The notes under the pieces were generated by a model. The model made no database searches. It saw nothing but the letters and a program-made list of their open reading frames with translations, and was not told where the DNA came from. A stretch of DNA of 64,000 bases. It comes from Candidatus Syntropharchaeum sp. GTDB taxonomy: Archaea; Halobacteriota; Syntropharchaeia; Syntropharchaeales; Syntropharchaeaceae. Numbering within the stretch: position 1 is the stretch's first letter; the number at the start of each line of letters is the position of its first letter. Shown here in pieces: positions 6,469 to 39,600 of the stretch. The stretch is from assembly GCA_026134025.1 (NCBI GenBank), contig JAOQII010000002.1:6008-70007 (forward strand), given 5' to 3'. A program made the translations under genes and the position numbers.

Positions 6469-6498
6469 AAAATATGTTGGGTGAGGTGATAGTTTAAA

Positions 6499-7809: not shown

Positions 7810-7812
7810 AGG

Positions 7813-18959: not shown

Positions 18960-18960
18960 T

Positions 18961-22137: not shown

Positions 22138-22141
22138 AAAA

Positions 22142-22486: not shown

Positions 22487-22487
22487 A

Positions 22488-24809
22488 ATGATGAAAGAGG
22501 AGGAAACACGAAACATTAATATCGTTAATTCAGAGCCGCTTTCACCCCTCAAGAAATGGTCAGCAAAATGGAGTTTATGGCCCTGCCACTTTGTAACCTC
22601 ATGCTGTGGTGTGGAGCTTGCCCATGCCTATGGCTGTGGTTATGATGGTGAGCGACTTGGATCGCTGGCGATGGGTATCTCACGGCAGGCGAACACGATC
22701 ATCGTTGAGGGTACAATTACCAGGAAAATGGCACGTCCATTGAGGGTTGTCTGGGAGCAGATGCCTGATCCGAAGTTTGTGAATGTGATCGGCGCGTGTG
22801 GAGAGCGCGGCGGGATATTCTGGAACAGCTATCATATCACACACCCCCACAGGATCGTGCCTGTCGATTTCTTCGTACCTGGCTGTCCTGTAACACCTGA
22901 AGCACTGTTGAGGGGCATACGTGCACTTCAGGACAAGATTGAGGGAGATGACCGATCAACAATCTCATTCAGGACTGTGGATCTTTCAGGAGCCGGGGGT
23001 AAGAAGAACCGGGTACCCGAAAGTCCAAAGATCATCGCACCAACCCCGCTTGTGAAGCCAGACATCCCATCTGGAGTTCGCTGGGAGGAGGGTGAGCAAA
23101 TCGTTGAGATGTTAAAAAAAGTGCTTGGAGAGCTTGTAATTTCAATCACAGTAACTGATAAGGATAGAATTGCCATAAAGACCACACCTGAGAATATCAG
23201 GGAAGTTGCAGCCCGATTATCAGCTGAGATGAAGATCGACCACGTAAAGAGCGTGAACGTCATCGATGTACCGCATGAGCGGAAGTTCATCATCGAGTAC
23301 ACAGCAGGAAGCTACGAGAAGGAGTTGATGCCTGTTTTATTCACGATATTTGCAGATCTTAGATCAGGTAAGGATGAAATCTCATTCCCGAGTCTTGCTG
23401 ACATCTGGATGAGTGCCGATTACACCGAGCGTGAGCTGCAGGATTTCTTTGGAGTTAAATTTGAGGGAAACCCAGGCAGGGAAGGAAACTTCCTATTAGC
23501 ACCTGATACGCCAAAGTTCCCGCTCAGAAGATCTTTTAAACTCGAAGAGGAGCGATACGTCCTTGAAGATGATAAGCCGTTCGCACCTGTGATCGACCCA
23601 CCGACCGAGTTTGATATACCGCTTCCCCCGGGGCTTGAAGAGGAGGTTGGGGCAGCAGGTGAGTATCTGCTTCTTGTTGGACCGCACCATACAGGAAGCG
23701 GACATCTGAGGTGGATCATGCGATTGAAGGGTGATACACTGAGCGAGGTTATACCAGATCCTGGATATGTCCACCGTTCGATGGAGAAACTTGCTGAGAA
23801 CAGACTGTATATCCAGAATATTCCACTATTTGAACGGCTATGTATTGTTGATCCCTTTAATGTGAACCTTGGTTATGTCAGAACAATCGAGAAAGCTCTC
23901 AAGATCGATGTACCAGAGCGTGCAACCTACATCAGGACGTTGATGGCAGAACTATCAAGGATTGACGCCTTCACGTACGATGCAGGAATATTCTCGCTCT
24001 TTATGGGTCACTCAACCGGTTTCATGTACCTGTGGGCGATAAGAGAGATGCTACTTGAGATGATAACCGCGATGACAGGCTCAAGGTGCAGTCCATCATT
24101 CATCATCCCTGGGGGTATAAGGCGCGACATCTCAGATGAGGTGCTCAATCTTGTGGAAAAGCTTCCAACCGCGGTTCAGGGTAGACTCCGTAAGTTTGAG
24201 GATATATTTGTGAATAACCCGGTTCTTATATCACGGGTCAAAGGTGTAGGCGTTTTATCAAGGGAGGATGCGATAAAAGCAGGGATTGTTGGACCATTTT
24301 TGAGGGCATCTGGCGTTGAGTATGACATCAGAAAGATTGAGCCTTATGAAGCCTATGGTGACCTTGACTGGGAAGTAATCGGTGCAGATGATGGGGATTG
24401 CCTTGTAAGATTCCTTGTAAGGCTTGAAGAGATGCAAGAGAGCCTCAATATCGTGAAACAGTGTGTAGAGAAGCTTAAGTCGATGGAGCGCGGAGGCGTG
24501 ATGAGTGAAGCTATACTTGGGGAGTACAGCGAGGCAAAAGATGACATACGCGGCTCATTCTACCGTGTCTTTGGCAATCTGGTTCTTCCACGGGGCGAGT
24601 GGAGCACGGTGACAGAGGCAGCACGTGGCACACTCTTCTTCTCTATACTGAGTGATGGTGACTCGAACGTACCCTATCGCGTGAGAACGATCTCGCCCAG
24701 CTGGTATAACCTGAGAGGGATCATTGAGGCATCGCGGGGTGAGAAGATGGCAGATTTCTGGGCGGTTTATGGAAGTTTTGGATATTTCCCGCCTGAGGCA
24801 GATAGGTGA
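22488..24809 (+). CDS. Fused NuoB-NuoC-NuoD homologue (FpoBCD)
   Basis: One 773-aa ORF with three parts. The NuoB part has the N2 cluster cysteines ('SCCGVE', 'GACGERGG', 'PGCPVTPE'). The NuoC part has 'ADYTERELQDFFGVKFEGNP'. The NuoD part has 'VGPHHTGSGHLRW' and the C-terminal 'PPEADR'. There are no NiFe-hydrogenase Cys motifs. Confidence 0.9.
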   Translation: MMKEEETRNINIVNSEPLSPLKKWSAKWSLWPCHFVTSCCGVELAHAYGCGYDGERLGSLAMGISRQANTIIVEGTITRKMARPLRVVWEQMPDPKFVNVIGACGERGGIFWNSYHITHPHRIVPVDFFVPGCPVTPEALLRGIRALQDKIEGDDRSTISFRTVDLSGAGGKKNRVPESPKIIAPTPLVKPDIPSGVRWEEGEQIVEMLKKVLGELVISITVTDKDRIAIKTTPENIREVAARLSAEMKIDHVKSVNVIDVPHERKFIIEYTAGSYEKELMPVLFTIFADLRSGKDEISFPSLADIWMSADYTERELQDFFGVKFEGNPGREGNFLLAPDTPKFPLRRSFKLEEERYVLEDDKPFAPVIDPPTEFDIPLPPGLEEEVGAAGEYLLLVGPHHTGSGHLRWIMRLKGDTLSEVIPDPGYVHRSMEKLAENRLYIQNIPLFERLCIVDPFNVNLGYVRTIEKALKIDVPERATYIRTLMAELSRIDAFTYDAGIFSLFMGHSTGFMYLWAIREMLLEMITAMTGSRCSPSFIIPGGIRRDISDEVLNLVEKLPTAVQGRLRKFEDIFVNNPVLISRVKGVGVLSREDAIKAGIVGPFLRASGVEYDIRKIEPYEAYGDLDWEVIGADDGDCLVRFLVRLEEMQESLNIVKQCVEKLKSMERGGVMSEAILGEYSEAKDDIRGSFYRVFGNLVLPRGEWSTVTEAARGTLFFSILSDGDSNVPYRVRTISPSWYNLRGIIEASRGEKMADFWAVYGSFGYFPPEADR

Positions 24810-24815
24810 TTTAAG

Positions 24816-25904
24816 ATGATGGGAACTATTGAAGCACTGATAAATTTGATGATGGCGGATCAGGTGGCGATACCGCTTCTTGATCCAATCTTAAATATCC
24901 TCTACGGGATACCACTTCTTGGGTATCTACTTGCCTTCATCCTCTGGAAGCCAATCTTTGCAGGGCTTGTATGTCCTGGCTTTGCAACGCTCGGGGTTAT
25001 CCTGATGCTCTTTCCATGGATTGAGCGAAAGCTTGTTGCACGGATGCAGTGGCGTGTTGGACCCAGAGAGATACTCCCGCAGTTTGGCGGCATCATCCAG
25101 CTTCTTGCAGACTCACTCAGATTCCTCTTCCAGGAGGTGATCGTCCACAGAGATGCAAAGCAACCTTACTTCGTGCAGTTCCCTGTGCTCTCATTCATCC
25201 CAGCACTTCTACCGCTTCTATTCATCCCTGCAGGGGTGATCGTTGCCGTTAAATCAGCCTACGGCGTCCAGATCATACTTGCACTCGTCTGCCTCTTTCC
25301 GTTCTTCATACTGGGGCTTGGCTGGGCATCAAACTCGAGGTTTGCATATATCGGGACGGTGAGAGAGGCGTTCATGTACTTTGCCTATGAGATCCCATTT
25401 ATAATCGCTGTTCTTGCGATGATTGTCCTCTATGGCACATCAGATCCCGTGGCAATCGCGGGAATGTCAGTTCCAGGAATCATCCTGAACCCGCTTGCAG
25501 CCCTCACATTCTTTATAGCTGCAGCGATGGCAACATCCCGTCTGCCCTTTGAGATTGCTGAGGCAGATCAGGAGCTTGCAGCAGGACCTCATGTTGAGTA
25601 TTCAGGGATCTTATTCGGGCTGATCTATGTGATGTGTTATGAGAAGATGTATATCCTTTCAGGGCTGATGACGATTCTATTTCTGGGAGGTGGCAGCGGC
25701 CCTGAGATTGCGATACTTGGCGACCTCTCAGGGGTTGTCTACTTCATGATAAAGACGGTGATTGTTATGACGCTTCTGGCCGCCCTACGTGGTGTCTATC
25801 CAAGATACAGGCTTGATCAGGGATTGAAGATTGGGTGGAGTTCGATGCTGATCATGGGTACACTTGCACTTGTAATATCACTCGCGGAGGTTCTGATCTT
25901 ATGA
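24816..25904 (+). CDS. fpoH: Complex I-like subunit H (NuoH/FpoH)
   Basis: 362 aa, polytopic. 'RKLVARMQWRVGPRE', 'LADSLRFLFQE' and 'PFEIAEADQELAAG' are NuoH hallmarks. Confidence 0.85.
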   Translation: MMGTIEALINLMMADQVAIPLLDPILNILYGIPLLGYLLAFILWKPIFAGLVCPGFATLGVILMLFPWIERKLVARMQWRVGPREILPQFGGIIQLLADSLRFLFQEVIVHRDAKQPYFVQFPVLSFIPALLPLLFIPAGVIVAVKSAYGVQIILALVCLFPFFILGLGWASNSRFAYIGTVREAFMYFAYEIPFIIAVLAMIVLYGTSDPVAIAGMSVPGIILNPLAALTFFIAAAMATSRLPFEIAEADQELAAGPHVEYSGILFGLIYVMCYEKMYILSGLMTILFLGGGSGPEIAILGDLSGVVYFMIKTVIVMTLLAALRGVYPRYRLDQGLKIGWSSMLIMGTLALVISLAEVLIL

Positions 25905-26635
25905 AGAAGATTGTAGCACCTGATTACGGGCTTGGCGAGACTGTAAAGTCTCATGCTGCTGCTATCAAGGTTGCAATCAAAGAAGCTATCCTACCACAGA
26001 CTGTCACATCTCACTACCCAGGAGAGCGACGCAGGATGCCAGACTGCTTCAGGGGCTATCTTCGCTTTGACCCTGAGATGTGCATAAGCTGCTTCCAGTG
26101 CAGCTTCATCTGCCCTGCAAACGCAATTGGGATGCGTGAGGCACCTGATAATCGCTACTATCCAACGATAGACTATGGGAAGTGTATCTTCTGCTACTTC
26201 TGTCTTGATTCATGTCCAGGCGGTGCGCTCAAGCCGACAAAAGTTCATGATGTTGCGTACAATGATGTGGATGAGATGTTGACTCCTACCTGTGATATGA
26301 TCGATATGCCCGAGATTATCCGTGAAGATGAACGGTATGTCGAGTATAAGATAGACGAGCATGACCTCAGCCTCGAGCGCGTAAAAGGACTGGATGACCT
26401 TGCAGTTGAGCTTCCAGAGCTGGAAAAGATCTCTATGGTCTCAGTCTGTGTTGCTCCTGAGAACTGTCTTTCCTGCAGGGTCTGTGAAGAGGTATGCGAG
26501 AGTGGAGCGATCACGTCAGCATTGGATGGAGATGAAATCAGAATGACCATTGATACCACGACCTGCAACGGTTGTGGGTTGTGTGTCAAGGAGTGTTCAA
26601 TGCAGGTACTGAGGCTTGTCAGGAGGGAGATTTAG
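25901..26635 (+). CDS. fpoI: Complex I-like subunit I (NuoI/FpoI) with an extra C-terminal 2x[4Fe-4S] domain
   Basis: ATGA overlap with fpoH. The NuoI motifs are 'CISCFQCSFICP' and 'CIFCYFCLDSCP'. An additional pair is 'CLSCRVCEEVCESG' and 'CNGCGLCVKECS'. Confidence 0.85.
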   Translation: MKKIVAPDYGLGETVKSHAAAIKVAIKEAILPQTVTSHYPGERRRMPDCFRGYLRFDPEMCISCFQCSFICPANAIGMREAPDNRYYPTIDYGKCIFCYFCLDSCPGGALKPTKVHDVAYNDVDEMLTPTCDMIDMPEIIREDERYVEYKIDEHDLSLERVKGLDDLAVELPELEKISMVSVCVAPENCLSCRVCEEVCESGAITSALDGDEIRMTIDTTTCNGCGLCVKECSMQVLRLVRREI

Positions 26636-26637
26636 TA

Positions 26638-27702
26638 ATGGCAGCAGCAGGGAAGTTTGAGTGGAAAATCGCCATTGTCAATAAACCGTTGAAGGATAAG
26701 ACATACTTTGAGAACCTGAAAGAAACAGTGATCGATACAGGGATCTGCAGTCGATGCCTGACGTGCGCGTGTATCTGCCCTGTTGATGGAATAATCGCAG
26801 CAAAACCTGTGGACTTTCCTGACTACAAAGAGCGGTGTACCGATTGTGGTGCCTGTGTAAGGGTATGTCCCAGGTTTGATTATAAGCCAAAGTACGGGAT
26901 GGGCGAGTACCTGGAGTTTGTCGCGGCAAAATCAAACCGTTTTGTTGGACAGGACGGTGCGATGGTAACAGAGATCATGATGTCAGCGATTGAGATGGGT
27001 ATGATCGATCGGGCGCTCTTTGTGGGTAGAAACGATGAATGGATGACTGAAGTCTTTCACGTCTACGATCCATCTCAGCTTGAGATGGGAACGCTCACCG
27101 GGACAAAGTACACATTTGCAACAGTCCTTAAGGATCTTAAAAAAGCGGTTCTATTATCAAAGAAAGGTGTTGGGATCGTTGGAACGCCCTGCATCGTATC
27201 AGGTGTTAAGAAGCTACAGAAGGAATATCCACTCTTTCGTGAGCGGGTGAAACTTGTTGTGGGACTGTTCTGTACAGAAAACTTCCACTACGAGGAGCTC
27301 GCAGCATTCTTAAGTGAGAAGGGTGTTGACCATAACAGACTCATAAAGACGGATATCACAAAGGGCAAGTTCATCGCCACAATGGAGGGTGAAGAAGAGC
27401 CTGTTACCTTCAAGGTGAAAGAGCTGGAGGAGATACTACCATCAGGCTGTAGCGTCTGTACCGACTTTACCGCAGTTGAGGCCGATGTCAGTGTGGGCAG
27501 TGTGGGTAGCAAGCCAGGCTTCTCAAGTGTGGCGGTTCGTGAGAAGAATGCGGCAGAGGTCATGGACTATATCCGTGAAAAGGGGTATGCAGAGTTTGGT
27601 GGTGATGCGGTGGAGAAACAGCTTGAATTCCTGATCAACTACAAGATCGGGAGGTTCTATGTCGAGACCGCCGAGGAAGAAGGAAGAGATAAAAGTTTAT
27701 AA
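26638..27702 (+). CDS. fpoF: FpoF/FqoF-like F420H2-oxidising subunit (FrhB family with N-terminal 2x[4Fe-4S])
   Basis: 'CSRCLTCACICP' and 'CTDCGACVRVCP', then FrhB N- and C-domain motifs ('GQDGAMVTEIMMSAIEMGMIDRALFV', 'GIVGTPCIVSG', 'CSVCTDFTAVEADVSVGSVG'). ATG 26638 lies 2 nt after the fpoI stop. Confidence 0.8.
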   Translation: MAAAGKFEWKIAIVNKPLKDKTYFENLKETVIDTGICSRCLTCACICPVDGIIAAKPVDFPDYKERCTDCGACVRVCPRFDYKPKYGMGEYLEFVAAKSNRFVGQDGAMVTEIMMSAIEMGMIDRALFVGRNDEWMTEVFHVYDPSQLEMGTLTGTKYTFATVLKDLKKAVLLSKKGVGIVGTPCIVSGVKKLQKEYPLFRERVKLVVGLFCTENFHYEELAAFLSEKGVDHNRLIKTDITKGKFIATMEGEEEPVTFKVKELEEILPSGCSVCTDFTAVEADVSVGSVGSKPGFSSVAVREKNAAEVMDYIREKGYAEFGGDAVEKQLEFLINYKIGRFYVETAEEEGRDKSL

Positions 27703-27738
27703 TGATAATGATAGTATTCAGGTAATGGTGGGGATATA

Positions 27739-28185
27739 TTGAAGACAGACCTGGTCTATTGGGAAGATGAGATTGGAAAGACGCCAAAGAAGATTTCAGT
27801 AGACGTAAGTCCCTATGGTATACAATTGGGGACGAGAGCAGAGTGGCAGATGGGAATTGCTGCAGAGGATAAGAAGGTTGAGGCAAATGTATTGACGCCG
27901 ATCAAAATAATGCCGGTAACGGTCCCAGAAGGGGCGATTGTGCTACCATGTATCTTCATGCGACACGCACTTGGAATCGTTACAGGTATTACATGCAGTG
28001 GAAGATGTAAACCCGTCGAAGAGGAACGTACAATCTCTGAGGTTCTCTTTCATCCGATTGAAAGTGGCGTAATTTATAAAAATGAGCTTTTGACCGTTAT
28101 AAACATCATACCTGCTGCAATTGAGGAAGAGCTGCCGAGCAAAGAAGCGGTATACAGGTGGATGCAAAAGCGATATGAGGAATGA
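27739..28185 (+). CDS. Hypothetical protein (weak resemblance to the FwdD / molybdopterin-dinucleotide-binding beta-barrel)
   Basis: 148 aa with a TTG start and an ATGA overlap with mvhD. 'VTVPEGAIVLP' loosely recalls the FwdD 'MPEGMIYIP'. No firm assignment. Confidence 0.45.
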   Translation: MKTDLVYWEDEIGKTPKKISVDVSPYGIQLGTRAEWQMGIAAEDKKVEANVLTPIKIMPVTVPEGAIVLPCIFMRHALGIVTGITCSGRCKPVEEERTISEVLFHPIESGVIYKNELLTVINIIPAAIEEELPSKEAVYRWMQKRYEE

Positions 28186-28604
28186 GCTGGCAACCAAAAA
28201 TACTTGCATTCTGCTGTAACTGGTGCTCGTATGCAGGGGCTGATCTTGCAGGGGTTGAACGGAGGCAGATGCCACCCACGGTCAGGATCATACGCGTCAT
28301 GTGCTCAGGCACGGTTGATCCTGCCTGGGTACTTGAGGCTTTTTTAGAGGGTGTGGACGGCGTACTGATAACAGGTTGCCATCCTGGAGAATGTCATTAC
28401 CTTAATGCAAATTATCATACGGCGAGGAGATACCGCCTGCTCGAGGCGTTTGTTAAGGAGTTCGGGCTTGAACCAGCACGACTGCGACTTGAGTGGATCG
28501 CAGCAACAGAGGGCGTTAAGTTTGCAGAGGTTGTGCGAGATATGACCGATAAAATCAGGGCACTTGGCCCAAGCCCGCTAAGGCCAGAAGAGGGGGTTAG
28601 GTGA
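28182..28604 (+). CDS. mvhD: MvhD-type [2Fe-2S] protein (methyl-viologen-reducing hydrogenase delta subunit family)
   Basis: 'KILAFCCNWCSYAGADLAG...IRVMCSGTVDPAWVLEAF..GVDGVLITGCHPGECHY' is the classic MvhD signature. Confidence 0.85.
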   Translation: MSWQPKILAFCCNWCSYAGADLAGVERRQMPPTVRIIRVMCSGTVDPAWVLEAFLEGVDGVLITGCHPGECHYLNANYHTARRYRLLEAFVKEFGLEPARLRLEWIAATEGVKFAEVVRDMTDKIRALGPSPLRPEEGVR

Positions 28605-29749
28605 CGGGTCAATCATACCTTGCATGGGCTAAAGACCCTGAGATCAGAAAACGTGGTGGTTCAGGTGGGTTTGTGACAGCAGCACTTATTGCAGGCATCA
28701 AAGAGGGGATCATCGATGAAGTGCTCCTTGTCAGGCGGATCGATCAGTTCGAGAGTGTACCATACCTGACTCATGATCCTGAGGAGGTTAAATCAGCGAG
28801 CAGTCCACAGCTTGCAGCACCATTAAATCTCTCATCCTACATACCCAGGGGCGTAAAGGTTGCTGTCACGACGAAGCCATGTGATGCAAGGGCGATCATT
28901 GAACGTGCAAAGCGCGGACGTTTCGAGCTTGAGGATGTCTACATGGTTGGACTCAACTGCGGGGGTACGATGCCACCGGTATCAACCGTAGCGTCGGTTC
29001 GTGATATCTTCGGAGTTGATCCTGATACGGTTACAGGTATTGAGATCGAGAGAGGAGAGCTTATCTTCAAGCGAGATAGAGGCGAAGATTTGACCATCTC
29101 AATCGATGAAGCTGAGAAGAAGGGCTATGGTAGGCGTGAGTCGTGTAAGTACTGTAATACCAACATCCCTGAAATGGCAGATCTTGCATGTGGGAACTGG
29201 GGTGTGCCATCTGATCAAAGAGCAACATTTGTCGAGATCCTGAGTGCAAAGGGTGAAGAGCTTTTTGAGGCTGCAAAGAAAACTTCCATGATCGAGTTTG
29301 AGGATGCAACTCAGAAAGAGCTCGAAAAGCGCCTGAAAATAGACAGGCGAATGCGTGAACTTGCGAATCGAAGGTGGGATGAGGTTGCTGGTGTGCTTGA
29401 TGAAATGGATCGCTTAGCCTATTATATCAACGAGTTTAGCCGTTGTATCCATTGTGAAAGCTGTAAGATCGTCTGTCCAGTATGTGTTTGTGAGGCTGAT
29501 GCCAAGTGCCTTGATATGGGACAGGGAAACAATCATTACAGGATCTCACTCTATAATATGATCAGGCTCTTTCATCTGATGGACTCGTGCATCGGTTGTG
29601 GGCAGTGTGAGGACGTATGCCCGGTTGATATACCACTCACCATGATTCACCAGCGATTTGAGAGGCGGATGGAGGAGATGATTGGCTATCGACCTGGTTT
29701 TGATCTTCAAAAGCCACCGCTGCAAAAGCCAGAGGAAGGGGTGAAGTGA
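28601..29749 (+). CDS. FrhB/FdhB-family F420-binding Fe-S protein with C-terminal 2x[4Fe-4S]
   Basis: 'RGGSGGFVTAALIAGIKEGIIDEVLLV' and 'CKYCNTNIPEMADLACGNWG' (FrhB N and C domains). The C-terminus has 'CIHCESCKIVCP' and 'CIGCGQCEDVCP'. This is the FdhB-like architecture. GTGA overlap with mvhD. Confidence 0.75.
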   Translation: MTGQSYLAWAKDPEIRKRGGSGGFVTAALIAGIKEGIIDEVLLVRRIDQFESVPYLTHDPEEVKSASSPQLAAPLNLSSYIPRGVKVAVTTKPCDARAIIERAKRGRFELEDVYMVGLNCGGTMPPVSTVASVRDIFGVDPDTVTGIEIERGELIFKRDRGEDLTISIDEAEKKGYGRRESCKYCNTNIPEMADLACGNWGVPSDQRATFVEILSAKGEELFEAAKKTSMIEFEDATQKELEKRLKIDRRMRELANRRWDEVAGVLDEMDRLAYYINEFSRCIHCESCKIVCPVCVCEADAKCLDMGQGNNHYRISLYNMIRLFHLMDSCIGCGQCEDVCPVDIPLTMIHQRFERRMEEMIGYRPGFDLQKPPLQKPEEGVK

Positions 29750-30738
29750 TGGAGTTTATACCGAGTATCTGTCCTGGGTGCTGTATCAACTGCGGGCTTT
29801 ACATCGTGAGGGATGAAGATGGTGGTATCAGGATTGACTACCGTAAATCATCCTCGGTCAATGAGGGTAAACTATGCAGATTCGGGGTAGAGCTTGGAGA
29901 CCTTTACTCACAGGAGCATCTTAAAGCCACCGTGAATGGTAAAGAGGTTGATTTTAATACCGCAAAAAAAGAAGCTTTGAAGCGGTTGAAGAAAACTGAT
30001 CCCAGATCGACAGGATTTTTAGCAATGGGTAACTCAACGAATGAGGAGATACGGGCGTTCAAGAAACTTGCAGGGGAGCTAGGAATTCGGAATATCGACT
30101 GTGGTCTATCAAAGCAGATTTTGAACGTGCCTGAAGCTGCAAGAAATTATCTCACAGCAGGAGTACCACTCAGAGAGATTGAGCAGGCAGAGAAGATCCT
30201 GCTGATCTCGTTCAACCCGGAAAACTACCCACTTATCATCAGGAGATTGCTTCGCGCAGAGCGGAATGGTGCTGAACTTCTCAAGGTCGGGTCCGGTGAG
30301 CCATATGTGGGAAGGGGTGCGATTATAGTCTCAGAGCTTGCCCCAACGAGTGATCCTGCATCCATCAGGCAAATCATTGAAGAAGCAGATGATACAGCCA
30401 CAATTCTTTTCATGAAGCCGTATGCAAACTTAAATGGTGCAATTAGACTTGGCTTCTATGGGTTTGACCTGATCGAGGCAATAAGAAGCGATGAGATAAA
30501 ATCACTATTTCTGCTTGATCCTCCACCAGGTTATGAAGATATATTCCACGACCTTGAGCTTCTTGTTGTTCAATCAGATCATGAGAGTGAGGTAACAGAG
30601 ATGGCAGATATTACACTTCCTTCACCACGTTTTTTCGAGCGAAGAGGGACGGTCGTGAATGTTGAGGGTGACGTGCTGCCAGTCGGTGGCGATTCGGGAG
30701 CAGGTGTTGAGATTCCCTCAAAGATCATTTTTCCTTAA
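29746..30738 (+). CDS. Truncated molybdopterin-oxidoreductase-like protein (FdhA/FwdB N-terminal part only)
   Basis: The N-terminal Fe4S4 motif is 'CPGCCINCG...NEGKLCRFG', followed by 'LAMGNSTNEEIRAFKKLAGELGIRNIDCG'. It is only 330 aa, against 680 aa or more for FdhA, and ends at a TAA. Confidence 0.65.
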   Translation: MMEFIPSICPGCCINCGLYIVRDEDGGIRIDYRKSSSVNEGKLCRFGVELGDLYSQEHLKATVNGKEVDFNTAKKEALKRLKKTDPRSTGFLAMGNSTNEEIRAFKKLAGELGIRNIDCGLSKQILNVPEAARNYLTAGVPLREIEQAEKILLISFNPENYPLIIRRLLRAERNGAELLKVGSGEPYVGRGAIIVSELAPTSDPASIRQIIEEADDTATILFMKPYANLNGAIRLGFYGFDLIEAIRSDEIKSLFLLDPPPGYEDIFHDLELLVVQSDHESEVTEMADITLPSPRFFERRGTVVNVEGDVLPVGGDSGAGVEIPSKIIFP

Positions 30739-30747
30739 AACCACTAA

Positions 30748-30757
30748 GTATATATAG
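30748..30757 (+). promoter_or_regulatory. TATA-like element (agtatatata) upstream of the McrA-like operon
   Basis: Lies in the 86-nt spacer after the upstream module, about 68 nt before ATG 30825. That ATG has the SD aaaggagg at 30811-30818. Confidence 0.35.
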
Positions 30758-30824: not shown

Positions 30825-31949
30825 ATGGAGAAGATAGGAAGACCACATCATGATTTTACAGAGGAATGGGCTTATGAACGTTGGATGTTTGAGACGCACA
30901 TACTTGGAAGACCTGGCGATTCCAAGCGAGAGACGCCGATAAAGCTTACGCAGTCGCTTGATAAGTATCTGCAGACTGAGGTCTCGCAGTGGTGGAGAAT
31001 CGGAATGCTTGAGAGTTCTCAGACGGTCAATCTGTGGACACAGGGTCTCTTAGTAGATCCAGAGAATACCACCGTGACACTGGGTTATCCACCCTGTTAC
31101 TCCGCGGCTGTGCCGCTTGACCCTGCTGCAACGATTGCATTATTTGGTAAATCACTCGATCTCTGCTGGTTGCAATCCGATAACTTCTCAGGGAGGGCAA
31201 ACCCTCATACCGTCTCATATCACTACGAGGATGGTGTGATGACGTACATCGCGATGACCGACCCGGGTGAGGGGCAGGAGCTTGTTGAGCGGAAGCACAT
31301 GAAGGTCGGTAAGGAGGTAAAAGATCTCCCATACAATTATCCCGCGTTTGAGGCCGTGATGCTGATCAGGGATGTGATGATGGATGCAAGGAACGAGGAT
31401 ACCCCGGAGTATGCGATGTCTGCGTACCATCAGGGATGCTGGCAGGCACACCACGGCTACAACGAGTCTTTCCCCTCAAGATCGACGATGGATGCGATCA
31501 TGGGTATGTATCCGTTCTTCAACTGTGAGAAGATGGGGTGGCCCTTCAAGTCAACCTGTGATGAGCTACCAAGGCCCGTGGGGCTTGAGCTTTTAGTTGA
31601 GAACCCACCAGATATCTTCACATGGAGATGGAACGCACTGATTCTGGGTGAGAACTGGTCGAGCAAGTACACGATCTCACCCCACGAGCTGCACCTCGAG
31701 CTGCAGGGTATGGAGACGATTCCATGCACACCAGAAGAGACTGCCCGCAGGATCATCAGATATGGTATGGATAGATACGTCTTCCCTGAGACGTTCAAGC
31801 AGTCGACGTACATCTATGGGGATGAGGCAAGGGTACAGGAGCCAACAGAGTATCCACTCCCTGCCAAGACTGTTGTCTCTCACAAGGATGCAACCGATCT
31901 GATCTATAAAGCGCGAAAAGAACATCCTGAATGGATAATGGAGGTATAA
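30825..31949 (+). CDS. Hypothetical protein, 374 aa, rich in Trp, Tyr and His (occupies the position of mcrB but has no McrB motifs)
   Basis: Strong SD and a long ORF with a 3-nt gap to the next gene. I recognise no family. The McrB signatures (for example SHSIYGGGGPG) are absent. Confidence 0.7.
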   Translation: MEKIGRPHHDFTEEWAYERWMFETHILGRPGDSKRETPIKLTQSLDKYLQTEVSQWWRIGMLESSQTVNLWTQGLLVDPENTTVTLGYPPCYSAAVPLDPAATIALFGKSLDLCWLQSDNFSGRANPHTVSYHYEDGVMTYIAMTDPGEGQELVERKHMKVGKEVKDLPYNYPAFEAVMLIRDVMMDARNEDTPEYAMSAYHQGCWQAHHGYNESFPSRSTMDAIMGMYPFFNCEKMGWPFKSTCDELPRPVGLELLVENPPDIFTWRWNALILGENWSSKYTISPHELHLELQGMETIPCTPEETARRIIRYGMDRYVFPETFKQSTYIYGDEARVQEPTEYPLPAKTVVSHKDATDLIYKARKEHPEWIMEV

Positions 31950-31952
31950 AAG

Positions 31953-32498
31953 ATGCCGATAGATTACAGTGTTTCAAAGAAGATTGTCGAGAATGGCATG
32001 GTGAACGTGGATAAACTCTGCCCTCACTCAGGGTTTGACAACGATATATATAATATACCGGCATGCAAGGCACCGATCGTTAACAAAGAGCTTTTATACT
32101 CGTACGTCCCAGATTGTGGGGTCTTCATGGGTCCAAAGACGACAAAGGCAAAATCACTTGTATATGGTGGAGAAGCAGAACCGCTCTATACGTATACCTG
32201 TGAGAAGGGGCACAAGTTTGTACGATGGTCTGGATGGTGTGATGTTCCCGAGGTTGAGCCTGGAACGAATGACCTGCACATGAGCGCTGAGACACTTGTC
32301 AAAGAGGGTAAGATGTTCGGGAGGCTTGAGAACTTTGAACCAAGGAGTACCCCAGGCTATGTATCAGTGGTCAAGAAGATTGAGGAAGAGGGATACACCC
32401 CAACCCAGGACGAGATGGAACAGTTCGGCATAACCCCAGAGGGAAAGGGACATGGAAATCCAGCCGTGCATGAATTGAAGAAGTGGGGATTGAAGTAG
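31953..32498 (+). CDS. Hypothetical protein, 181 aa, with 5 Cys (occupies the position of mcrG but has no McrG motifs)
   Basis: Starts 3 nt after the previous stop. Cys/His pattern: 'CPHSG', 'PACK', 'PDCG', 'YTCEKGH' and 'GWCDVP'. The McrG signature (RYRG.D.GTLSGRQ) is absent. Confidence 0.65.
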   Translation: MPIDYSVSKKIVENGMVNVDKLCPHSGFDNDIYNIPACKAPIVNKELLYSYVPDCGVFMGPKTTKAKSLVYGGEAEPLYTYTCEKGHKFVRWSGWCDVPEVEPGTNDLHMSAETLVKEGKMFGRLENFEPRSTPGYVSVVKKIEEEGYTPTQDEMEQFGITPEGKGHGNPAVHELKKWGLK

Positions 32499-32528: not shown

Positions 32529-34412
32529 GTGAATAAATTGGCTAAGAAGAAGAAGGCGACCAAGGGAGGGGTAAGTACTGGGCTTACAGATCTCGAGGAT
32601 AAGTATCGGAACAAGATGTTCCATGAGGTAACCGAGGGGACCGTCATCTCAACAGAGCTTGCATACAGTTACGATCCACTGAAACTGAAAGATGAGTTCA
32701 TGCCAGTAGAGCGTCAGCGGGAGATTTACAAGGCTCTCGATACGCTCTTCAATGGCGAACCGATGGATACTGTCGATGAGGAATCGTATCGGCATGGTGG
32801 TGTCCAGCAGTGTAAATCAAAGCGAGACTGGACTGAGTGGGGTAAGAAAATCTCGGTTGAGCGTGGAATCCCGCAGTACAACCGTGAGATGGGTATCCCG
32901 CTGGGTCAGCGATACTATGAACCTATTCTTGTATCAAATACCGACTATGTCGTGGACTATGATGACTTCTCGATCTACAACAACTGCGCGATCCAGCAGT
33001 TGATGGATGATATGAGAAAGACCGTGATAATCGGGCTTGATGTCCCGCATCGAGTCATCCAGCTCAGGCTCGGTAAGGAGATCTCTCCTGAGTCGATGAA
33101 CCTCTACATGGAGACGATGCAGCACGTGCTCGCAGGCGGTGCGGTTGTCCAGGAACACATGGCAGAGGCACATCCAGGTCTTGTTACTGATGCGTATGCG
33201 AAGATTATCACAGGAAACGCGGATCTTGCAGAGCAGTTCGATAGAAGATGGGTGATGAGTATTGAGAAAGAGTTCCACCCATCAAGGGCTGAACCTCTCC
33301 ACGAAACGATCGGAAACAGGCTCTACAATACGATCAGAACCCATACGCTCAGGCTGAGGATGACAAATGGAGCGGCTGTCATCAGGAGTGCGGCTATCGC
33401 TGTCACGATGTCATTTGTCGCGGCATACAAATTAACAGGCGAGTCGGTCCTATCTGATATCTCATTTGCAACACGGCATGCACAGGCGATTCACATGGGG
33501 CTTCCAACGTGGCTCTCGAGATCGCAGTCGCCGAACGAGCCTGGAGGAATCCCACTGGGGTACTGGGCTGATATGTGCTGTGCTGAGAAGGAGCTGCCGA
33601 ATACACCATGGATGAAGGCTGTTACCATCGAGCGGGACATGCAGCTCGGAAAAGATATGACCCAGGCTGTGCTTGAGTGCTGTGCTATCGCTTCACATAT
33701 GGATTCGGTATGGTATGGCATCTACATGTCAGGTGGACTTGGATTCCCGGCGTTTGCATATCTCTACTGTGGTAACATCCTCGATGACTGGCTCAACCGT
33801 TTCACTGAACTGTGCTACTACAACTTTGAGGGGCATGAGCGTTTCCCGGATTCGTGGGACTGTGCCAAGGGGATGGGTGAGGTTGCAGCCCTCTACCTCA
33901 TGGAGACGTATGAGAAGTACCCAACACTTCAGGAGCTTCACTGGGGCGGTGCGATCAGGTGCTTCATAACCTCAGCGATCGCAGATTCCTTTGCCGCACT
34001 TTTAACAGGTGATGCACTCCAGGGCTCGATGATCCAGAACTACATCGTCTCACTCCTCATGAAGGAGGGGTGGCTCAGGACCGGCTTTGGTGGACAGGAG
34101 GTGCAGGCACACTGTGGGCCCGCGTACGGGACATCGCTCAGGATCGAAGAGGGTGGACTCCCGGAACTTCGAGGGTCGAACTATCCAATGATGTCCTATA
34201 CAGCGACACACACACCAGGCTATATCACAGGGATTTATGCAGCGATGATAGGTCGAGGATCGTCATGGTCCTGCAGTCCCCTTGTGAAGGTTGCGTTTGC
34301 AGATCCTGATTCGTCATTTGACTTCAAGAATGCGCGGCTCTGCATCGCAAAGGGCTGCGCAAACGAGTTTGAACCGCAGGGTGAGCGTGACCTGATAAGG
34401 CCTGCACGATAA
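32529..34412 (+). CDS. mcrA: Divergent methyl-/alkyl-coenzyme M reductase alpha-subunit homologue (orphan McrA-like protein)
   Basis: It aligns by eye with McrA along its whole length. Matching blocks are 'ERGIPQYNREMGIPLGQR', 'RKTVIIGLD..RLGKEISPE', 'GGAVVQEHMAEAHPGLVTDAY', 'SPNEPGGIPLGYWADM', 'YMSGGLGFPAFAY..GNILDDW', 'LPELRGSNYP', 'SPLVKVAFAD' and 'EFEPQGERDLIRPA'. It is 627 aa with an N-terminal extension of about 60 aa. The start is GTG 32529 or TTG 32538. Confidence 0.9.
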   Translation: MNKLAKKKKATKGGVSTGLTDLEDKYRNKMFHEVTEGTVISTELAYSYDPLKLKDEFMPVERQREIYKALDTLFNGEPMDTVDEESYRHGGVQQCKSKRDWTEWGKKISVERGIPQYNREMGIPLGQRYYEPILVSNTDYVVDYDDFSIYNNCAIQQLMDDMRKTVIIGLDVPHRVIQLRLGKEISPESMNLYMETMQHVLAGGAVVQEHMAEAHPGLVTDAYAKIITGNADLAEQFDRRWVMSIEKEFHPSRAEPLHETIGNRLYNTIRTHTLRLRMTNGAAVIRSAAIAVTMSFVAAYKLTGESVLSDISFATRHAQAIHMGLPTWLSRSQSPNEPGGIPLGYWADMCCAEKELPNTPWMKAVTIERDMQLGKDMTQAVLECCAIASHMDSVWYGIYMSGGLGFPAFAYLYCGNILDDWLNRFTELCYYNFEGHERFPDSWDCAKGMGEVAALYLMETYEKYPTLQELHWGGAIRCFITSAIADSFAALLTGDALQGSMIQNYIVSLLMKEGWLRTGFGGQEVQAHCGPAYGTSLRIEEGGLPELRGSNYPMMSYTATHTPGYITGIYAAMIGRGSSWSCSPLVKVAFADPDSSFDFKNARLCIAKGCANEFEPQGERDLIRPAR

Positions 34413-34425: not shown

Positions 34426-35013
34426 ATGGTATACTATGGAGAGGTTGCACCAACTGCATATGAAAACGTACCAGGGCACTTTCTACCAACACCGCCACTG
34501 CCTGACAGGTGGTGGGATGATGTTGACTGGATCATCCTGAAGGATCACGAACCGACAGCGTACGAGATGCTCTTTGACTTCTACATCAACATGATCGTGC
34601 CAAATCCGAAGTGCACGATGGTTTCATCGAGATTTCCGCCAAGGTCAATCCTTATCGAGACGTGGCACCCCGAGCGTGGGCTTGAGGTTAACAGGTTCAT
34701 GATATCCCCTGGTGGGATCAGAGAGGGTGCACCTGAGCCAGGATCAGGTGTTGAGGTCGATACAATCTTCAGGATCGACTACTATGACCTCGCAAATATC
34801 CTGCTCGGCAATAAGCGACCAACCGATCCTGTGGCTGATAACGCAAGGATCAATGAGCTCTATGGTGGTCCGTGTCTCAGGGGAAACCTGACGGCACTCA
34901 TCGATTTCAAGGATATCATCATGCTTGCACATGGTAAGCGATGGAAGACTGAGTGTGATGATGATCTCGGAAAGGAAGTAAGAGCGATGATGTGGCCTGA
35001 TGGCCACCCCTAA
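34426..35013 (+). CDS. Hypothetical protein, 195 aa, with a possible SCP2-like (lipid/alkyl-binding) C-terminal half
   Basis: Starts 13 nt after the mcrA-like stop, with SD aaggaggt. 'FRIDYYDLANILLGNKRPTDPV...LRGNLTALIDFKDI' resembles the SCP2 pattern 'D..D...l..GK.nP..af..GklkikGnm.la.kl'. The assignment is tentative. Confidence 0.55.
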   Translation: MVYYGEVAPTAYENVPGHFLPTPPLPDRWWDDVDWIILKDHEPTAYEMLFDFYINMIVPNPKCTMVSSRFPPRSILIETWHPERGLEVNRFMISPGGIREGAPEPGSGVEVDTIFRIDYYDLANILLGNKRPTDPVADNARINELYGGPCLRGNLTALIDFKDIIMLAHGKRWKTECDDDLGKEVRAMMWPDGHP

Positions 35014-35043: not shown

Positions 35044-36108
35044 TTGATGAAACTCTGTGCACCCCTGCCCGGGCATCTTGACGCAACAAAGAAGATTCTA
35101 AAAGAAGAAGCTTCCAATCTCCATGAAGTCTTCATGGCTGGGTCTTCAGATTATATCCCAACAGGCAGGCAGGCTCTTGGAGAATCCTTCAGTGAGACGA
35201 TAGAAGAGACAACGAGGCTTGTACATGAAGATAACCTTCGCATGGACGTTGTGATGAACGCCTCGTGCATGGGAGGAAGACACCTCACGGATGAGGGTTT
35301 GCACCGTTACATGAGCTACCTTGAGATACTCGCACGTGCGGGTGTTGATGCTGTGACGCTTGCAGATCCCTACCTCATCGAGGTTGCATCCAGAAACTTC
35401 TCGTTTGATGTCATCGTCTCATGTATCTCCTTTGTGGATTCTCCAGAGAAGGCTATCTTCTATGAAGAGCTTGGTGCGGATGGTATAACAGTTGATACGA
35501 GTATAAACAGAGATTTCCACGTGCTTGAGGCGATTAGAGATGCTGTATCCTGTGATATCAGGGTTCTTGTCAATGAAGGGTGTCTCTATAAATGTCCTTT
35601 CAGGTACTTTGACTTCAACGTCGTATCGCATACCTCAGGTCCTCCGCCAGTACCAAAGATCTCATTCAACTACTACCAGCGCAAATGCAGATCTTTGAGG
35701 GTTAAGAAGCCGTGGCTTCTGATGAAGGCAAACTGGGTAAGGCCAGAAGACCTGAAGGCATACGAAGAGATCGGGATCGATACCTTCAAGATAAGCGGGA
35801 GAAATCAACCTGTAAACTGGGTGATCGAGACCATCAAGACCTATAAAAGCAGGGACTTTTCCGGAAATCTCATCGATCTTCTCGATTATTCAAGGAGTAT
35901 GAAGCATCTCTTCTACATCCCAAATAAGAAACTCGATGGGGCGATAGATAGATGGAAGTCATGTGACAGGAACTGTCATCGATGTGGGTTCTGCAAAGAT
36001 CTGACAGCGCAGATCATGAAGGTATATCTTGAGAGGGGGACGGATCGAGAAATGCTTGTAAGTCTAACTGAGTTGAATGAAGGAGTTCCTGATGAATACC
36101 CTGAATAA
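35044..36108 (+). CDS. Peptidase-U32-family protein (the family that includes UbiU/UbiV, RlhA and TrhP)
   Basis: TIM-barrel-like layout: 'ILARAGVDAVTLADPYLIEVA', 'EELGADGITVDTSINRDF' and 'IRVLVNEGCLYKCPFRY', which resembles the U32 'EvFvhGalC...G.C' motif. There is also a C-terminal Cys cluster 'CDRNCHRCGFC'. Confidence 0.6.
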   Translation: MMKLCAPLPGHLDATKKILKEEASNLHEVFMAGSSDYIPTGRQALGESFSETIEETTRLVHEDNLRMDVVMNASCMGGRHLTDEGLHRYMSYLEILARAGVDAVTLADPYLIEVASRNFSFDVIVSCISFVDSPEKAIFYEELGADGITVDTSINRDFHVLEAIRDAVSCDIRVLVNEGCLYKCPFRYFDFNVVSHTSGPPPVPKISFNYYQRKCRSLRVKKPWLLMKANWVRPEDLKAYEEIGIDTFKISGRNQPVNWVIETIKTYKSRDFSGNLIDLLDYSRSMKHLFYIPNKKLDGAIDRWKSCDRNCHRCGFCKDLTAQIMKVYLERGTDREMLVSLTELNEGVPDEYPE

Positions 36109-36469
36109 TTTGCTCGATCATCGAGGATCGATTGAGAAGCGTCTCATGAAACTGACAGGACGTGTGATCTGGGTTGTACAGCTCAATCTATCCTCCTTCA
36201 GCTGCGGGTGCACCGGGATAACGATATTTTTTGCGGGGCTTGAGAAAGAGGACGTTGAGGTATTTGCATCCAGGATCGTCGAGATACTCAACGAGGTCAC
36301 AGCAAGCGTGAGACTTGATCCTGATATCATCTATGCGTCGCTGGTACCTGGATCATCAGAGGTTGGCTCGATCTCACTGAAACGCCTATGTGATGAATGC
36401 AGAAAAGACTATGGCGGAGATGTAAGGCCCTGGAGTAACATAAGCATTCTTTATAAAAAAGCGTGCTAA
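36092..36469 (+). CDS. Hypothetical protein (about 125 aa), last gene of the McrA-like operon
   Basis: The ORF overlaps the U32 gene's 3' end by 17 nt (32 nt if it starts at 36077). I recognise no family. Confidence 0.4.
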   Translation: MNTLNNLLDHRGSIEKRLMKLTGRVIWVVQLNLSSFSCGCTGITIFFAGLEKEDVEVFASRIVEILNEVTASVRLDPDIIYASLVPGSSEVGSISLKRLCDECRKDYGGDVRPWSNISILYKKAC

Positions 36470-36551: not shown

Positions 36552-36624
36552 GCCCGGGTAGTGTAGAGGCCCATCATGGAGCCCTGTCGAGGCTTCGACT
36601 CGGGTTCGAATCCCGACCTGGGCG
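36552..36624 (+). tRNA. tRNA-Asp (anticodon GTC)
   Basis: Cloverleaf folded by hand. The acceptor stem GCCCGGG/CCTGGGC has one G-U pair. The anticodon stem GAGCC/GGCTT closes the loop CTGTCGA. The T-arm is GGGTTCGAATCCC. 73 nt, no encoded CCA, and a T6 tract follows at 36629-36634. Confidence 0.9.
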
Positions 36625-36659
36625 TACATTTTTTATCTATTGAGATTGTTAATCAAAAT

Positions 36660-39600
36660 ATGCGTTCTTATTACACTAATATTAAGCGAATGAGGGAGAT
36701 CATTAAAAATTGTGAGGGCTTTGATCGGATCATCGTTGTAACATCAAATAAGAATCAGGCGGCATTCTGGAAAAAGAGGCTTGATGGGGTCAAAGATCAG
36801 ATCATAGGTCAAAATTCGAAGATCTATGTTGTTCTTGAAGAATGGAAGGCTGGACAGCTTCTTGGCACATTGAACGCGTGGAATGAAGCCTGTAAGGAGG
36901 AGGATCTTGATGCACTTCTGGAGAATGGGGGGAAGGTTGCTATATACCACACCGCGGGTCTTGGGAAGCGTATGGCGCCGATTGTTCAATCAGAGGGGGG
37001 AGATAAATCTGCGATTAAGCTTCCAGGGTTACTTGAATATGACGGGCAAAAGGTACCAATGAGACTGCTTGAAGCTGTAATATACCAGTCTTCGATATTT
37101 GCACCGTCTCGTAGGGGCAGGATCTGCGTTTTCTGGACAGATCAGGTCTTTATTCCATCAGGAGATGTGGAGTTTGAAGGAAAGCATCACGTCGAACTCT
37201 TGAGTATCAGAAGAGAAGCACCGAGAACCCGGGAGGATTGGGACCAGAACTGGCGGTCTTACGGGCTTGTAATCCCTGATGATGATGGGGCAATGATGCT
37301 CGAGAAGCAAACCTGGGATGAGTTTACGAGGCTCATCGATGGTGGCATCATAAAGCCAAAGAAAGGGAAGTTTGTAATCGCAAAAGGACTTGGATGTTTC
37401 TCGATATCACATAAATTCTTCATTGAAGTTCTTGCTGCGTTCAGGAAGGATCTGGAAGAGCGAGGGAAGCTTGATACAGATCCTGATCTGTGGATGCCCC
37501 TGACATCACCCCAATTTGTTGAGACCGAGAAAAGGGCAAGAGTTGAAGGTTTGATAGATAAATTTGCACCGGGAGATCTGATCTTTAAAGATAAAGACGT
37601 GGGTGCTGATACATACTGGTGGGACTTTGGACAGGTCAGGCTCTACCATCAAAACCTGTTGAAACTGACAGAGGAGACAGAAGAGGGGGAGGTGATGCGT
37701 ACCTTCTTCAGGATCTGGAATGGCTCATCTGTGGTTGATAGCGTGATTAAGGATTCAGATCTTAGAGCGTGTGTCGTGATCTCAAGCCGGCTCAAGGGCG
37801 TGAGAGCGAAAAACTCTGTCATCTACAACTGTATCGAGCTTTCTGGATTCTCGGCTGAGAAGGAGGTTGTTGCAGATATTTTTCATCCGCTCAAGGGAAA
37901 GATAAGGATGAGAGCAGAGATATCTCGGGATGGAAAAAAAGACTGGAACCAGCGAATTTCTCCAAACTCATATACCTACGAGGAGCTTGAGTGTTTGATG
38001 AGAGATGTCTCGATGGATGAAATACACAAAGAGAGGCGTGTCTGGGAGAACTACTTCACACTGGATCTTGGAGCGGAATTTGATAGACTTAAATATTCAG
38101 GTGTACGGTTTAAGGAGAATCTCGTTCTGAAGGCATGGGGATACGAGTCCTGGCTCTGCTCTGCTCATCCCGCAAACCCATCGATGATAAGGGTTAGAGA
38201 TCTTGATATACCCCTGATTCACCTCCTGAATCATTGTGGAAGCTCGATAATCGGTAAGCAGATTTACAGCGATTTCAAGGGTGAGTTTCCGATACTGACC
38301 AAGTTCATAAACGCAGAGGAGAACCTATCTGTCCAGGTCCACCCATCTGATGAGGATGCTGAGCTTTTAGGTGAGGTTGAACGAGGAAAGACCGAGAGCT
38401 GGTACGTGATCGATGCAAAGCCAGGTGCAAAGATATATCTTGGCCTTAAAGAGGGGATCTCTGATCTTTCTGCGATTACAGAGGATGACCTGAATGCGAT
38501 CGAGGTTAAAGCTAATGATGTGTTCCTCATTCCTGCAGGAACACTTCATGCGATAGGTGGGGGAATTCTCCTCTTTGAGATTCAGGAATCGTCTGATATA
38601 ACATACAGGGTCTGGGATTGTGGGAGGGGGAGAGAACTTCATCTTGAGAAGGCGAGAGTAGTTTGCGTCTTTGATCAGGATCCAACTAATTTAAAACAAA
38701 GTCCTGAGCAAGTTAATGGCGAGATAGTACTTGTTGATACGCTTTATTTCACTTTATCGCTTATAGAAAGCGGTAAAGAGGAGACCATGGGATCATTTCA
38801 TCTTCTGACCGCGATCGAAGAAGATGCTGTGCTGGAGGTTGATGGAAGGCACGAGGAGTTAAAAAAAGGTGATACGGTCTTGATTCCAGCATCTATCCCG
38901 GCATACAGGATCAGATCGCGTGGAAAGGTTCTGAAGTCGTATCTTCGCACGCCTGAACAGATAGATCCTGTGATCTTCCAGACGTATGATGTGAGAGCTC
39001 ATGAGAGCAAACTTCCAGACCGGGTCTGCTATTACCTTGGAAAGGGATATGGGACCTATCTGCGCAGGCTTAAAGGTGCACCAGAAGGTGAGTTATGGGT
39101 CTGCATCGGCGGTGGGATCAGGCTCTCAACCCCACGGATAAGAAAGTCGCTCATCGCTGGAGTCTTATCAAGTGGTGTCAACGTCTACGATCTTGGGATA
39201 ACCTCAACACCAGAACTTTACTTCTCAATCCCCTTCCTCGGTGCGGATGGTGGGATAAATATAACAGCATCTCACAACCCGGCTTTTTACAACGGCCTTA
39301 AACAGGTCATAAAAAGTGATGATGGTTTCATATCAAGCATAAATCGTGATGAGATGCTTGAGATAAAAAGGACGATCCTCGAATCGGATTTTCTTGAGGG
39401 GAAAGGAAGGTCGATGAAGGTCGAGGAGGGATCGATCCCCAGATACCATAACATTCTCGTTGAGTCAAATTGCAGACTCGGCAGGGAGATCTGGATTCAT
39501 CTTTTAAAGAATTGGAACCTGAGAGAACTTCTCGATACGCTCTCAAACGTGAGCTTTCCAGAAAAGGCAGATCGAAAAAGCTTGAAAGCGATTAAGGAGA

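Follow-up and report, generated by a model that had tools for sequence, protein, structure and literature searches.

Two orphan protein families and an SCP2-like protein encoded beside one clade of archaeal alkyl-coenzyme M reductase

Alkyl-coenzyme M (alkyl-CoM) reductases (ACRs) give archaea a route to butane and petroleum alkanes that works without oxygen. The alpha-subunit gene acrA of one such enzyme has been described as an orphan in Candidatus (Ca.) Syntrophoarchaeum (Laso-Perez 2016, as cited in PMC9081873); in S. butanivorans three of the four ACR sets are in operons and one is not (PMC9081873). The highly expressed acrA cluster of Ca. Alkanophaga is set apart from acrB/acrG, as in Syntrophoarchaeum (Zehnle 2023, PMC10322722). 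Lemaire & Wagner (2022, PMC9118554) modelled the S. butanivorans alpha subunit OFV67021 (group d) with OFV66073/OFV66072, which are separate GenBank entries whose positions are not stated, and predicted that this ACR clade has a cleft open to alkanes of mid and long chain length. Here we describe an orthologous acrA, likewise apart from acrB/acrG, in a 64,000-nucleotide stretch of Candidatus Syntropharchaeum sp. (assembly GCA_026134025.1, contig JAOQII010000002.1, positions 6,008 to 70,007 of the forward strand; hereafter the window, to which all coordinates refer unless a locus is named). Its proteins have exact and near-exact cluster members that place it in Ca. Syntrophoarchaeum / Syntropharchaeales. 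Three neighbouring genes, which we call X, Y and Z, form a conserved module that is linked to one ACR clade and is distinct from the catalytic subunits.

The papers on the orphan acrA show its flanking genes only as unannotated (grey in Extended Data Fig. 3 of PMC10322722), and the conserved X-Y-Z module is the addition made here. The literature searched yielded no account of any of the three as a conserved family or as a partner of the ACR. The ACRs and the orphan position of acrA were thus known; what is new is three unrecognised conserved components of a known enzyme system. The four genes, with their S. butanivorans orthologues, are as follows.

30825-31949, + strand: X, ATG start, 374 residues; orthologue SBU_000316 / OFV67023
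31953-32498, + strand: Y, ATG start, 181 residues; orthologue SBU_000315 / OFV67022
32529-34412, + strand: acrA/mcrA homologue, 627 residues; orthologue OFV67021, SBU_000314 by position
34426-35013, + strand: Z, 195 residues, SCP2-like family; orthologue SBU_000313 / OFV67020

The intergenic gaps are 3 nt between X and Y, 30 nt between Y and acrA and 14 nt between acrA and Z. Ribosome-binding sites of the GGAGG type precede both X and Y; the former, GAAAGGAGG, lies 8 nt 5' of the X ATG, and the latter overlaps the end of X.

Linkage of X, Y and Z to one AcrA clade

The sequence of the 627-residue protein identifies it as a divergent alpha subunit of an alkyl-CoM reductase. It matches Pfam MCR_alpha_N (PF02745, 1.5e-85) and MCR_alpha (PF02249, 6.4e-21), and it carries the Gln axial ligand motif VVQEHM, with GGAVVQEHM aligning to the sequence of 1e6v. 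Its score of 480 bits against TIGR03256 is under the cut-off of 767.75, so that it is not a canonical methane-type equivalog, and its best PDB match is M. kandleri McrA (1e6v, 441 bits) and not ethyl-CoM reductase. Translation may begin at a GTG (32529) or at a TTG (32538), and the orthologues have 623-627 residues. An N-terminal extension of ∼60 residues (32529-32720) opens with a Lys-rich stretch, MNKLAKKKKATKGG, and relative to solved McrA structures there is an insertion of ∼30 residues near residues 355-385.

In a search with an AcrA alignment, members of the clade showed 49-85% identity to the window protein, followed by canonical McrA at ∼42%. The identity is 85% to S. butanivorans and 55-57% to the copies of Alkanophaga. 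The clade comprises proteins from S. butanivorans, Ca. Alkanophaga volatiphilum, Ca. A. liquidiphilum, Ca. Polytropus marinifundus JdFR-42, Archaeoglobaceae S009_4, and the metagenome-assembled genomes (MAGs) CSMAG_2293, CSMAG_2992 and MAG21, the last from a tar biofilm. Published work suggests that, in Ca. Syntrophoarchaeum and Ca. Alkanophaga, the acrA of this clade is the one that is highly expressed and activates alkanes.

X, Y, Z and the catalytic genes A, B and G were mapped with family hidden Markov models (HMMs) over fetched loci; the locus collections were pattern-seeded, and all counts given here are of the loci listed. X was present within ∼3 kb at every AcrA-clade locus that has upstream flank. 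These ∼18 distinct loci come from Syntrophoarchaeum, two Alkanophaga species, Polytropus JdFR-42, Archaeoglobaceae S009_4, CSMAG_2293, CSMAG_2992, MAG21 and metagenome contigs. At the 67 canonical mcr loci, in turn, X, Y and Z were never found (0/67). The original prediction, made from the window sequence alone, had offered unrelated partners of the McrA homologue as one of two possibilities for X and Y; this co-occurrence supports that possibility as a strict, conserved gene linkage with the AcrA clade. Y adjoins X at nearly all loci, and of the AcrA-clade loci with X only that of CSMAG_2293 has no Y. A 140-residue open reading frame (ORF) upstream of X in CSMAG_2293 was considered as a candidate Y and rejected, being a different Cys-rich protein.

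The commonest gene order is acrB-acrG-X-Y-(X-Y)-acrA-Z, seen at loci L012, L015, L019, L029, L102 and L111. In Archaeoglobi (L031 and L026) X and Y, with a further gene p128 between them (Y<-p128<-X), run divergently from acrB-acrG-acrA-Z, and in L031 the beta subunit has 462 residues (MCR_beta, 1e-82) and the gamma subunit 296 (MCR_gamma, 1e-86). The p128 protein (128-129 residues; L031 3622-4008, L026 2549-2938) is 76% identical between the two MAGs and has no Pfam match. Elsewhere the operon is split in different ways: Alkanophaga has Y-X-ycaO-acrA on one contig and acrB-acrG-Z on another, CSMAG_2293 has X-acrA and acrB-acrG-Z, Archaeoglobales B35_G2 has a contig with acrB-acrG-Z, and Syntrophoarchaeum and the window have X-Y-acrA-Z with acrB-acrG elsewhere. 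Z accordingly stands directly after acrA in Syntrophoarchaeum, Archaeoglobi and the tar-biofilm MAGs, and after acrG in Alkanophaga, CSMAG_2293 and B35_G2, where the operon is split. The alternative splits in the latter three indicate that all six genes behave as one unit. Between JdFR-42 and MAG21, A, B and G are 53%, 57% and 69% identical and X, Y and Z 36%, 42% and 49%, so that X, Y and Z evolve faster than the catalytic subunits.

Tandem arrays of up to 3-4 X-Y pairs occur in tar-biofilm and related MAGs such as MAG21 and CSMAG_2992 (L011 1908-7038, L101 230-11146, L009 3-4916). Each of these genomes holds at least 4-6 copies of acrA, with ∼2 X-Y pairs to every copy. In L101 up to four X-Y pairs surround one acrA, and a gene for a B12-binding radical SAM protein lies between the pairs and acrA. 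A long-form X with no adjacent Y is found in L001 (773-7738, an ENA metagenome scaffold) and L002, beside genes for two double ATP-binding cassette (ABC) ATPases that are component-A2-like; this X homologue also neighbours a McrD homologue and an AMP-binding (acyl-CoA synthetase-like) gene.

Relation of X and Y to the beta and gamma subunits

The other possibility put forward in the original prediction was a replacement of McrB and McrG, with X and Y as extremely diverged forms of the beta and gamma subunits. The resemblance in gene arrangement is real. McrB and McrG (PF02241, PF02783, PF02240) are, like X and Y, encoded by tightly spaced genes on the same strand immediately upstream of the alpha gene, so that X-Y-acrA mimics the order B-G-A. 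Long-form X homologues (434-480 residues) are of McrB-like length, and neither acrB nor acrG lies within the window. The replacement of beta and gamma is nevertheless effectively refuted, since genuine acrB-acrG genes share an operon with X-Y-acrA in L012, L015, L019, L029, L031, L026, L102 and L111; proteins that coexist with true beta and gamma subunits cannot be their replacements. In Alkanophaga and CSMAG_2293, moreover, orphan acrB-acrG pairs are found on other contigs, and the S. butanivorans orthologue of the window protein was modelled with separately listed McrB and McrG (PMC9118554), one of the four ACR sets of that organism being outside an operon (PMC9081873).

Profile comparisons agree with the gene orders. 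Alignments of X, Y and Z were compared by hhalign with alignments of McrA, McrB, McrG, McrC and McrD built from the fetched operons (McrC and McrD from the 67 canonical operons), and no comparison exceeded a probability of 0.6% (X against McrB, with a 60-sequence profile, 0.2%; Y against McrG 0.6%; Z against McrG 0.3%), compared with 43.5% and E 2.4e-4 for McrB against McrA, a known distant relationship that served as control. A Foldseek search with a predicted model of X gave no match to the McrB chains in the PDB. The conserved core of Y is only ∼105 residues and carries a Cys3-His site. Such a site is not known from McrG. Similarity to the beta and gamma subunits was thus not detected in the sequences and profiles of X and Y, nor in the modelled fold of X.

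The B-G-A-like order noticed in the window is best regarded as a by-product of operon rearrangement. The ancestral-looking unit is acrB-acrG-X-Y-acrA-Z, from which acrB-acrG have probably moved away in Syntrophoarchaeum and in the window, leaving X-Y-acrA-Z; it is this separation that makes the window look as if it held a B-G-A operon.

The X, Y and Z proteins and their possible roles

X and Y proved to be genuine ORFs, with exactly the coordinates first given for them, and belong to no family recognisable in Pfam, NCBIfam or the PDB. Neither had a Pfam or NCBIfam match at E<=1 (and so none to MCR_beta or MCR_gamma), 28 homologues of X and 23 of Y were likewise without Pfam match, and neither the single sequences nor the family profiles found anything in Pfam, NCBIfam or the PDB sequences. 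The sensitive profile and structure searches turned up no well-known housekeeping family that occurs without mcrA. X is a rare family, represented by 19 clusters in a collection of 5.8 billion proteins, 18 loci in 185,579 species genomes and 16 loci in 241 million metagenome records.

X had been singled out as rich in Trp, Tyr and His, and so it is: these residues make up 12.0% of the protein, against 6.3 +/- 2.2% (maximum 10.2%) in 34 other window proteins. One of its motifs, YHQGCWQAHHGYNESF, begins at residue 201. Across 45 sequences at 28-42% identity there are ∼25 invariant positions, chiefly His, Asp, Glu and Arg, among them H133, E135, R156, H158, D183, D187, R189 and N190, and further along the chain R219, E297, D316, Q326, Y331, R364, H367 and W370; conserved motifs are WHYEDG, ERRHMRTGE, DIxxDIRNE, YGMD, QSKxxYG and RKEHPEW. 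A metal or catalytic site would more typically show such a pattern than a scaffold. The family falls into a short class of 371-392 residues, which includes the window copy, and a long class of 423-480 residues with an acidic helical insert. X reads as a soluble protein, neither a signal peptide nor a membrane span being evident in its sequence. AlphaFold2 (AF2) gave a mean predicted local distance difference test score (pLDDT) of 30.6 with a 17-sequence alignment, and with 23 sequences a pLDDT of 64.5 and a predicted template modelling score (pTM) of 0.64, residues 100-210 forming a well-predicted core. A Foldseek search of the PDB with this model found nothing at E<=0.001. Most of its top 50 hits were ASKHA or RNase H-like folds, all weak (best E 0.14, probability <=0.41, template modelling (TM) score <=0.21), and no nucleotide-binding motif was recognised in X; we treat this trend as an unconfirmed hint about one sub-domain of X and do not accept it as an assignment.

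Y has cysteines at positions 23, 38, 55, 83 and 96. The five cysteines are as originally noted, where their spacing was called Zn-ribbon-like. Across 24 members the invariant residues are C23, C38, C83, E84, H87 and R91, and a W-A-D-V-P motif is also conserved; the spacing of C23, C38, C83 and H87 (15, 45 and 4 residues) departs from the classical CxxC...CxxC pattern. As C23, C38 and C83 are the only invariant cysteines and H87 is invariant with them, the conserved site is one of Cys3-His type and not of five cysteines, and it is a probable metal site. The conserved part of Y is an N-terminal module of ∼105 residues, and a C-terminal tail of ∼75 residues is specific to Syntropharchaeales. The Y profile, run over 1.84 billion representative sequences, matched 12 proteins at E<=0.001, ∼8 of them short and Y-like, the others being long, multi-stretch proteins matched in part.

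Z belongs by sequence to an SCP2-like family, a fold that binds hydrophobic ligands. Seven of ten family members match Pfam Alkyl_sulf_C (PF14864, best 7.2e-6) and five of ten match SCP2 (PF02036, best 1.2e-5), and the top four matches of the family profile in the PDB are all sterol carrier protein 2, albeit weak (E 0.09-0.35); the window copy taken alone matches neither Pfam family. The match of family members to SCP2 and to the alkyl-sulfatase C-terminal domain covers the SCP2-type ligand-binding domain with the helix region G-x-I-x-G-[ND] near its C-terminus, and Z has in addition an N-terminal region of ∼100 residues. No association of an SCP2-type domain with methyl-CoM reductase (MCR) or ACR was found in the literature searched. 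Copies of Z from the tar-biofilm lineages (L009 6919-7515, L033 9861-10499, L030 9808-10353) carry a Met/Gly-rich insertion (for example MTQMGGAGIMGKMMGMF), which the window copy does not have; the insertion is reminiscent of loops in other carrier proteins that are rich in methionine and bind hydrophobic compounds.

We conclude that X and Y, two rare orphan families, probably constitute with Z a clade-specific accessory module of one ACR clade; they are not its beta and gamma subunits. More tentatively, X and Y could be the two halves of a soluble heterodimer that binds metal and cooperates physically with the ACR and that, together with Z, would deliver poorly soluble alkanes to the enzyme or take over its alkyl-CoM products. 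Physical cooperation is suggested by the position of X, Y and Z inside the operon and their translational coupling, by the way Z travels with acrA or with acrBG when the operon splits, and by the multiplication of X-Y pairs along with acrA copies in hydrocarbon-associated MAGs. Substrate delivery or product hand-off is suggested by the likeness of Z to a hydrophobic-carrier fold and by the open alkane cleft predicted for this clade (PMC9118554). On this view, differences in hydrocarbon substrate would account for the tandem X-Y paralogues of archaea from tar and oil.

Several observations weigh against a role of X and Y as partners of the ACR. X-Y pairs occur away from any acr gene (L011, L014, L104/L105), and X is by itself in L001, so that a role independent of the ACR is possible. 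Stoichiometric subunits would not be expected in the two to four X-Y pairs found in some operons. Neither X nor Y was seen with the other three ACR clades of Syntrophoarchaeum, and contiguous accession numbers suggest that the ACR operon of Methanoliparia also has neither; judged from the loci listed, X and Y are likely to be absent from the other ACR clades, and alkane activation in general would then not require their function. Only a model of moderate confidence was obtained for X with AF2. Lastly, the McrB and McrG HMMs had no match within the 64 kb of the window, and the acrB and acrG that belong with its acrA lie outside it.

X and Y, with or without Z, might alternatively be clade-specific factors of maturation, assembly or activation that act transiently on apo-AcrA, as analogues of McrD and McrC or of helpers in post-translational modification. 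This we regard as rather unlikely, even though several neighbours speak for it. X-Y lie between acrG and acrA much as mcrD and mcrC lie inside mcrBDCGA, and mcrC and mcrD are, like X and Y, operon-embedded, non-catalytic accessory genes. In Alkanophaga X adjoins ycaO, the gene of the McrA thioglycine enzyme; in L101 the B12-binding radical SAM gene separates the X-Y pairs from acrA; and the X homologue of L001/L002 stands beside McrD and the two A2-like ATPases. Genes for ycaO and radical SAM proteins are, however, common near mcrA anyway. McrC and McrD lie between B and G, whereas X-Y lie between G and A and have no detectable similarity to either in profile comparisons; X-Y differ from them, too, in forming multiple paralogous pairs and in occurring with one ACR clade only. 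It is difficult to see why a chaperone should come as two to four different X-Y pairs per operon, or as ∼2 for each copy of AcrA, and the SCP2-like Z points to small hydrophobic ligands and not to protein maturation.

The same property of Z fits an enzyme acting on the ACR product, in which X-Y would carry out part of the conversion of alkyl-CoM to an acyl or aldehyde intermediate while Z carries the alkyl-thioether. X has a suitable set of invariant His, Asp, Glu and Arg residues (H133, E135, H158, D183, D187, R189, N190, E297, D316 and H367) and Y its invariant Cys3-His site and E84; the expansion of paralogues in tar-biofilm MAGs with many acrA copies fits a wider substrate range, and in Syntrophoarchaeum a U32-family protein is encoded after Z. 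We nonetheless think such an enzyme improbable, because X-Y are confined to one AcrA clade while other ACR clades face the same chemistry, and neither a motif for cofactor binding nor a known catalytic fold could be recognised. It is more improbable by far that X and Y have nothing to do with the ACR and hitch-hike beside acrA, for instance as a mobile or defence-like two-gene cassette. They are orphan families, and stand-alone pairs and tandem arrays do exist (L011, L014, L104), but their linkage has outlived several independent operon rearrangements at 28-43% identity and spans at least two orders (Syntropharchaeia and Archaeoglobi) together with unclassified MAG lineages. Mobile-element genes were not seen beside X-Y, and every genome that carries X also has the AcrA clade. 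The clade-specific accessory module thus remains the reading that we prefer.

Genomic surroundings and significance

The co-directional run that begins with X continues beyond Z, and a possible promoter element precedes it.

30749-30756, + strand: TATATATA, candidate archaeal TATA box, read from the sequence
35044-36108, + strand: U32-family protein, 354 residues, Pfam Peptidase_U32 1.2e-12
36077-36469, + strand: DUF5402 protein, 130 residues, Pfam DUF5402 4e-27, the end of the co-directional run

The putative TATA box TATATATA is inside the 86-nt gap upstream of X, ∼69 nt before its ATG. The U32-family protein, encoded in the same direction as X-Y-acrA-Z, has a C-terminal CX3CX2CX2C cluster and weak matches to UbiU and TrhP. 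Some U32 members are oxygen-independent hydroxylases (UbiU/UbiV, TrhP), which makes this protein a possible candidate for alkyl-CoM chemistry. The linkage of the U32-family and DUF5402 genes to acrA-Z is found in Syntrophoarchaeum only, the position being kept in S. butanivorans.

Directly 5' of X, positions 26572-30738 hold an electron-transfer run with FpoF/FrhB-like, DUF22, MvhD/HdrA2-C-terminal-like and FrhB-ferredoxin fusion genes, as well as a truncated molybdopterin protein of 330 residues (FdhA/NuoG-like). This run, which could be a dedicated redox module beside acrA, is itself preceded by an Fpo/complex-I-like operon (17466-26635). At 1212-9219 there is a complete operon for carbon monoxide dehydrogenase/acetyl-CoA synthase (CODH/ACS), comprising cdhA, cdhB, cdhC, a CooC-like ATPase gene, cdhD and cdhE, as expected of an organism that oxidises alkanes by way of the reverse Wood-Ljungdahl pathway. 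ORFs of 250, 436 and 474 residues at 4257-7809 were considered as mcr genes and rejected, since they are cdhC, the CooC-like ATPase gene and cdhD. The window also carries genes for UvrA, an HdrD-like protein and electron-transfer proteins of the F420/MvhD type. Downstream of the DUF5402 gene, a 1361-residue ORF (36576-40661) joins an N-terminal region of ∼500 residues without Pfam domain to a phosphomannose isomerase (cupin) and a phosphoglucomutase/phosphomannomutase, and by its domain content is predicted to be an unusual multi-enzyme fusion for sugar-nucleotide synthesis.

The reading of X and Y as cryptic beta and gamma subunits was a mis-annotation and is corrected here; the window acrA still depends on acrB and acrG encoded elsewhere. 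Two questions of the ACR field are by what route long, hydrophobic substrates get to the deeply placed F430 and how alkyl-CoM is processed further; the dominant ACR clade may here have components that were missing so far, for which X, Y and Z are testable candidates. All three are worth including in heterologous expression and structural work on ACRs. It is possible, though we consider it doubtful, that the ACR of this clade, the main alkane-activating enzyme of Syntrophoarchaeum and Alkanophaga, goes beyond a simple alpha2-beta2-gamma2 composition and is a larger assembly containing an X-Y metal-binding heterodimer and a Z carrier, or else that X-Y is the missing enzyme that processes alkyl-CoM. 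Were either true, it would explain the failed reconstitution of ACRs and the unknown step that follows alkyl-CoM formation.

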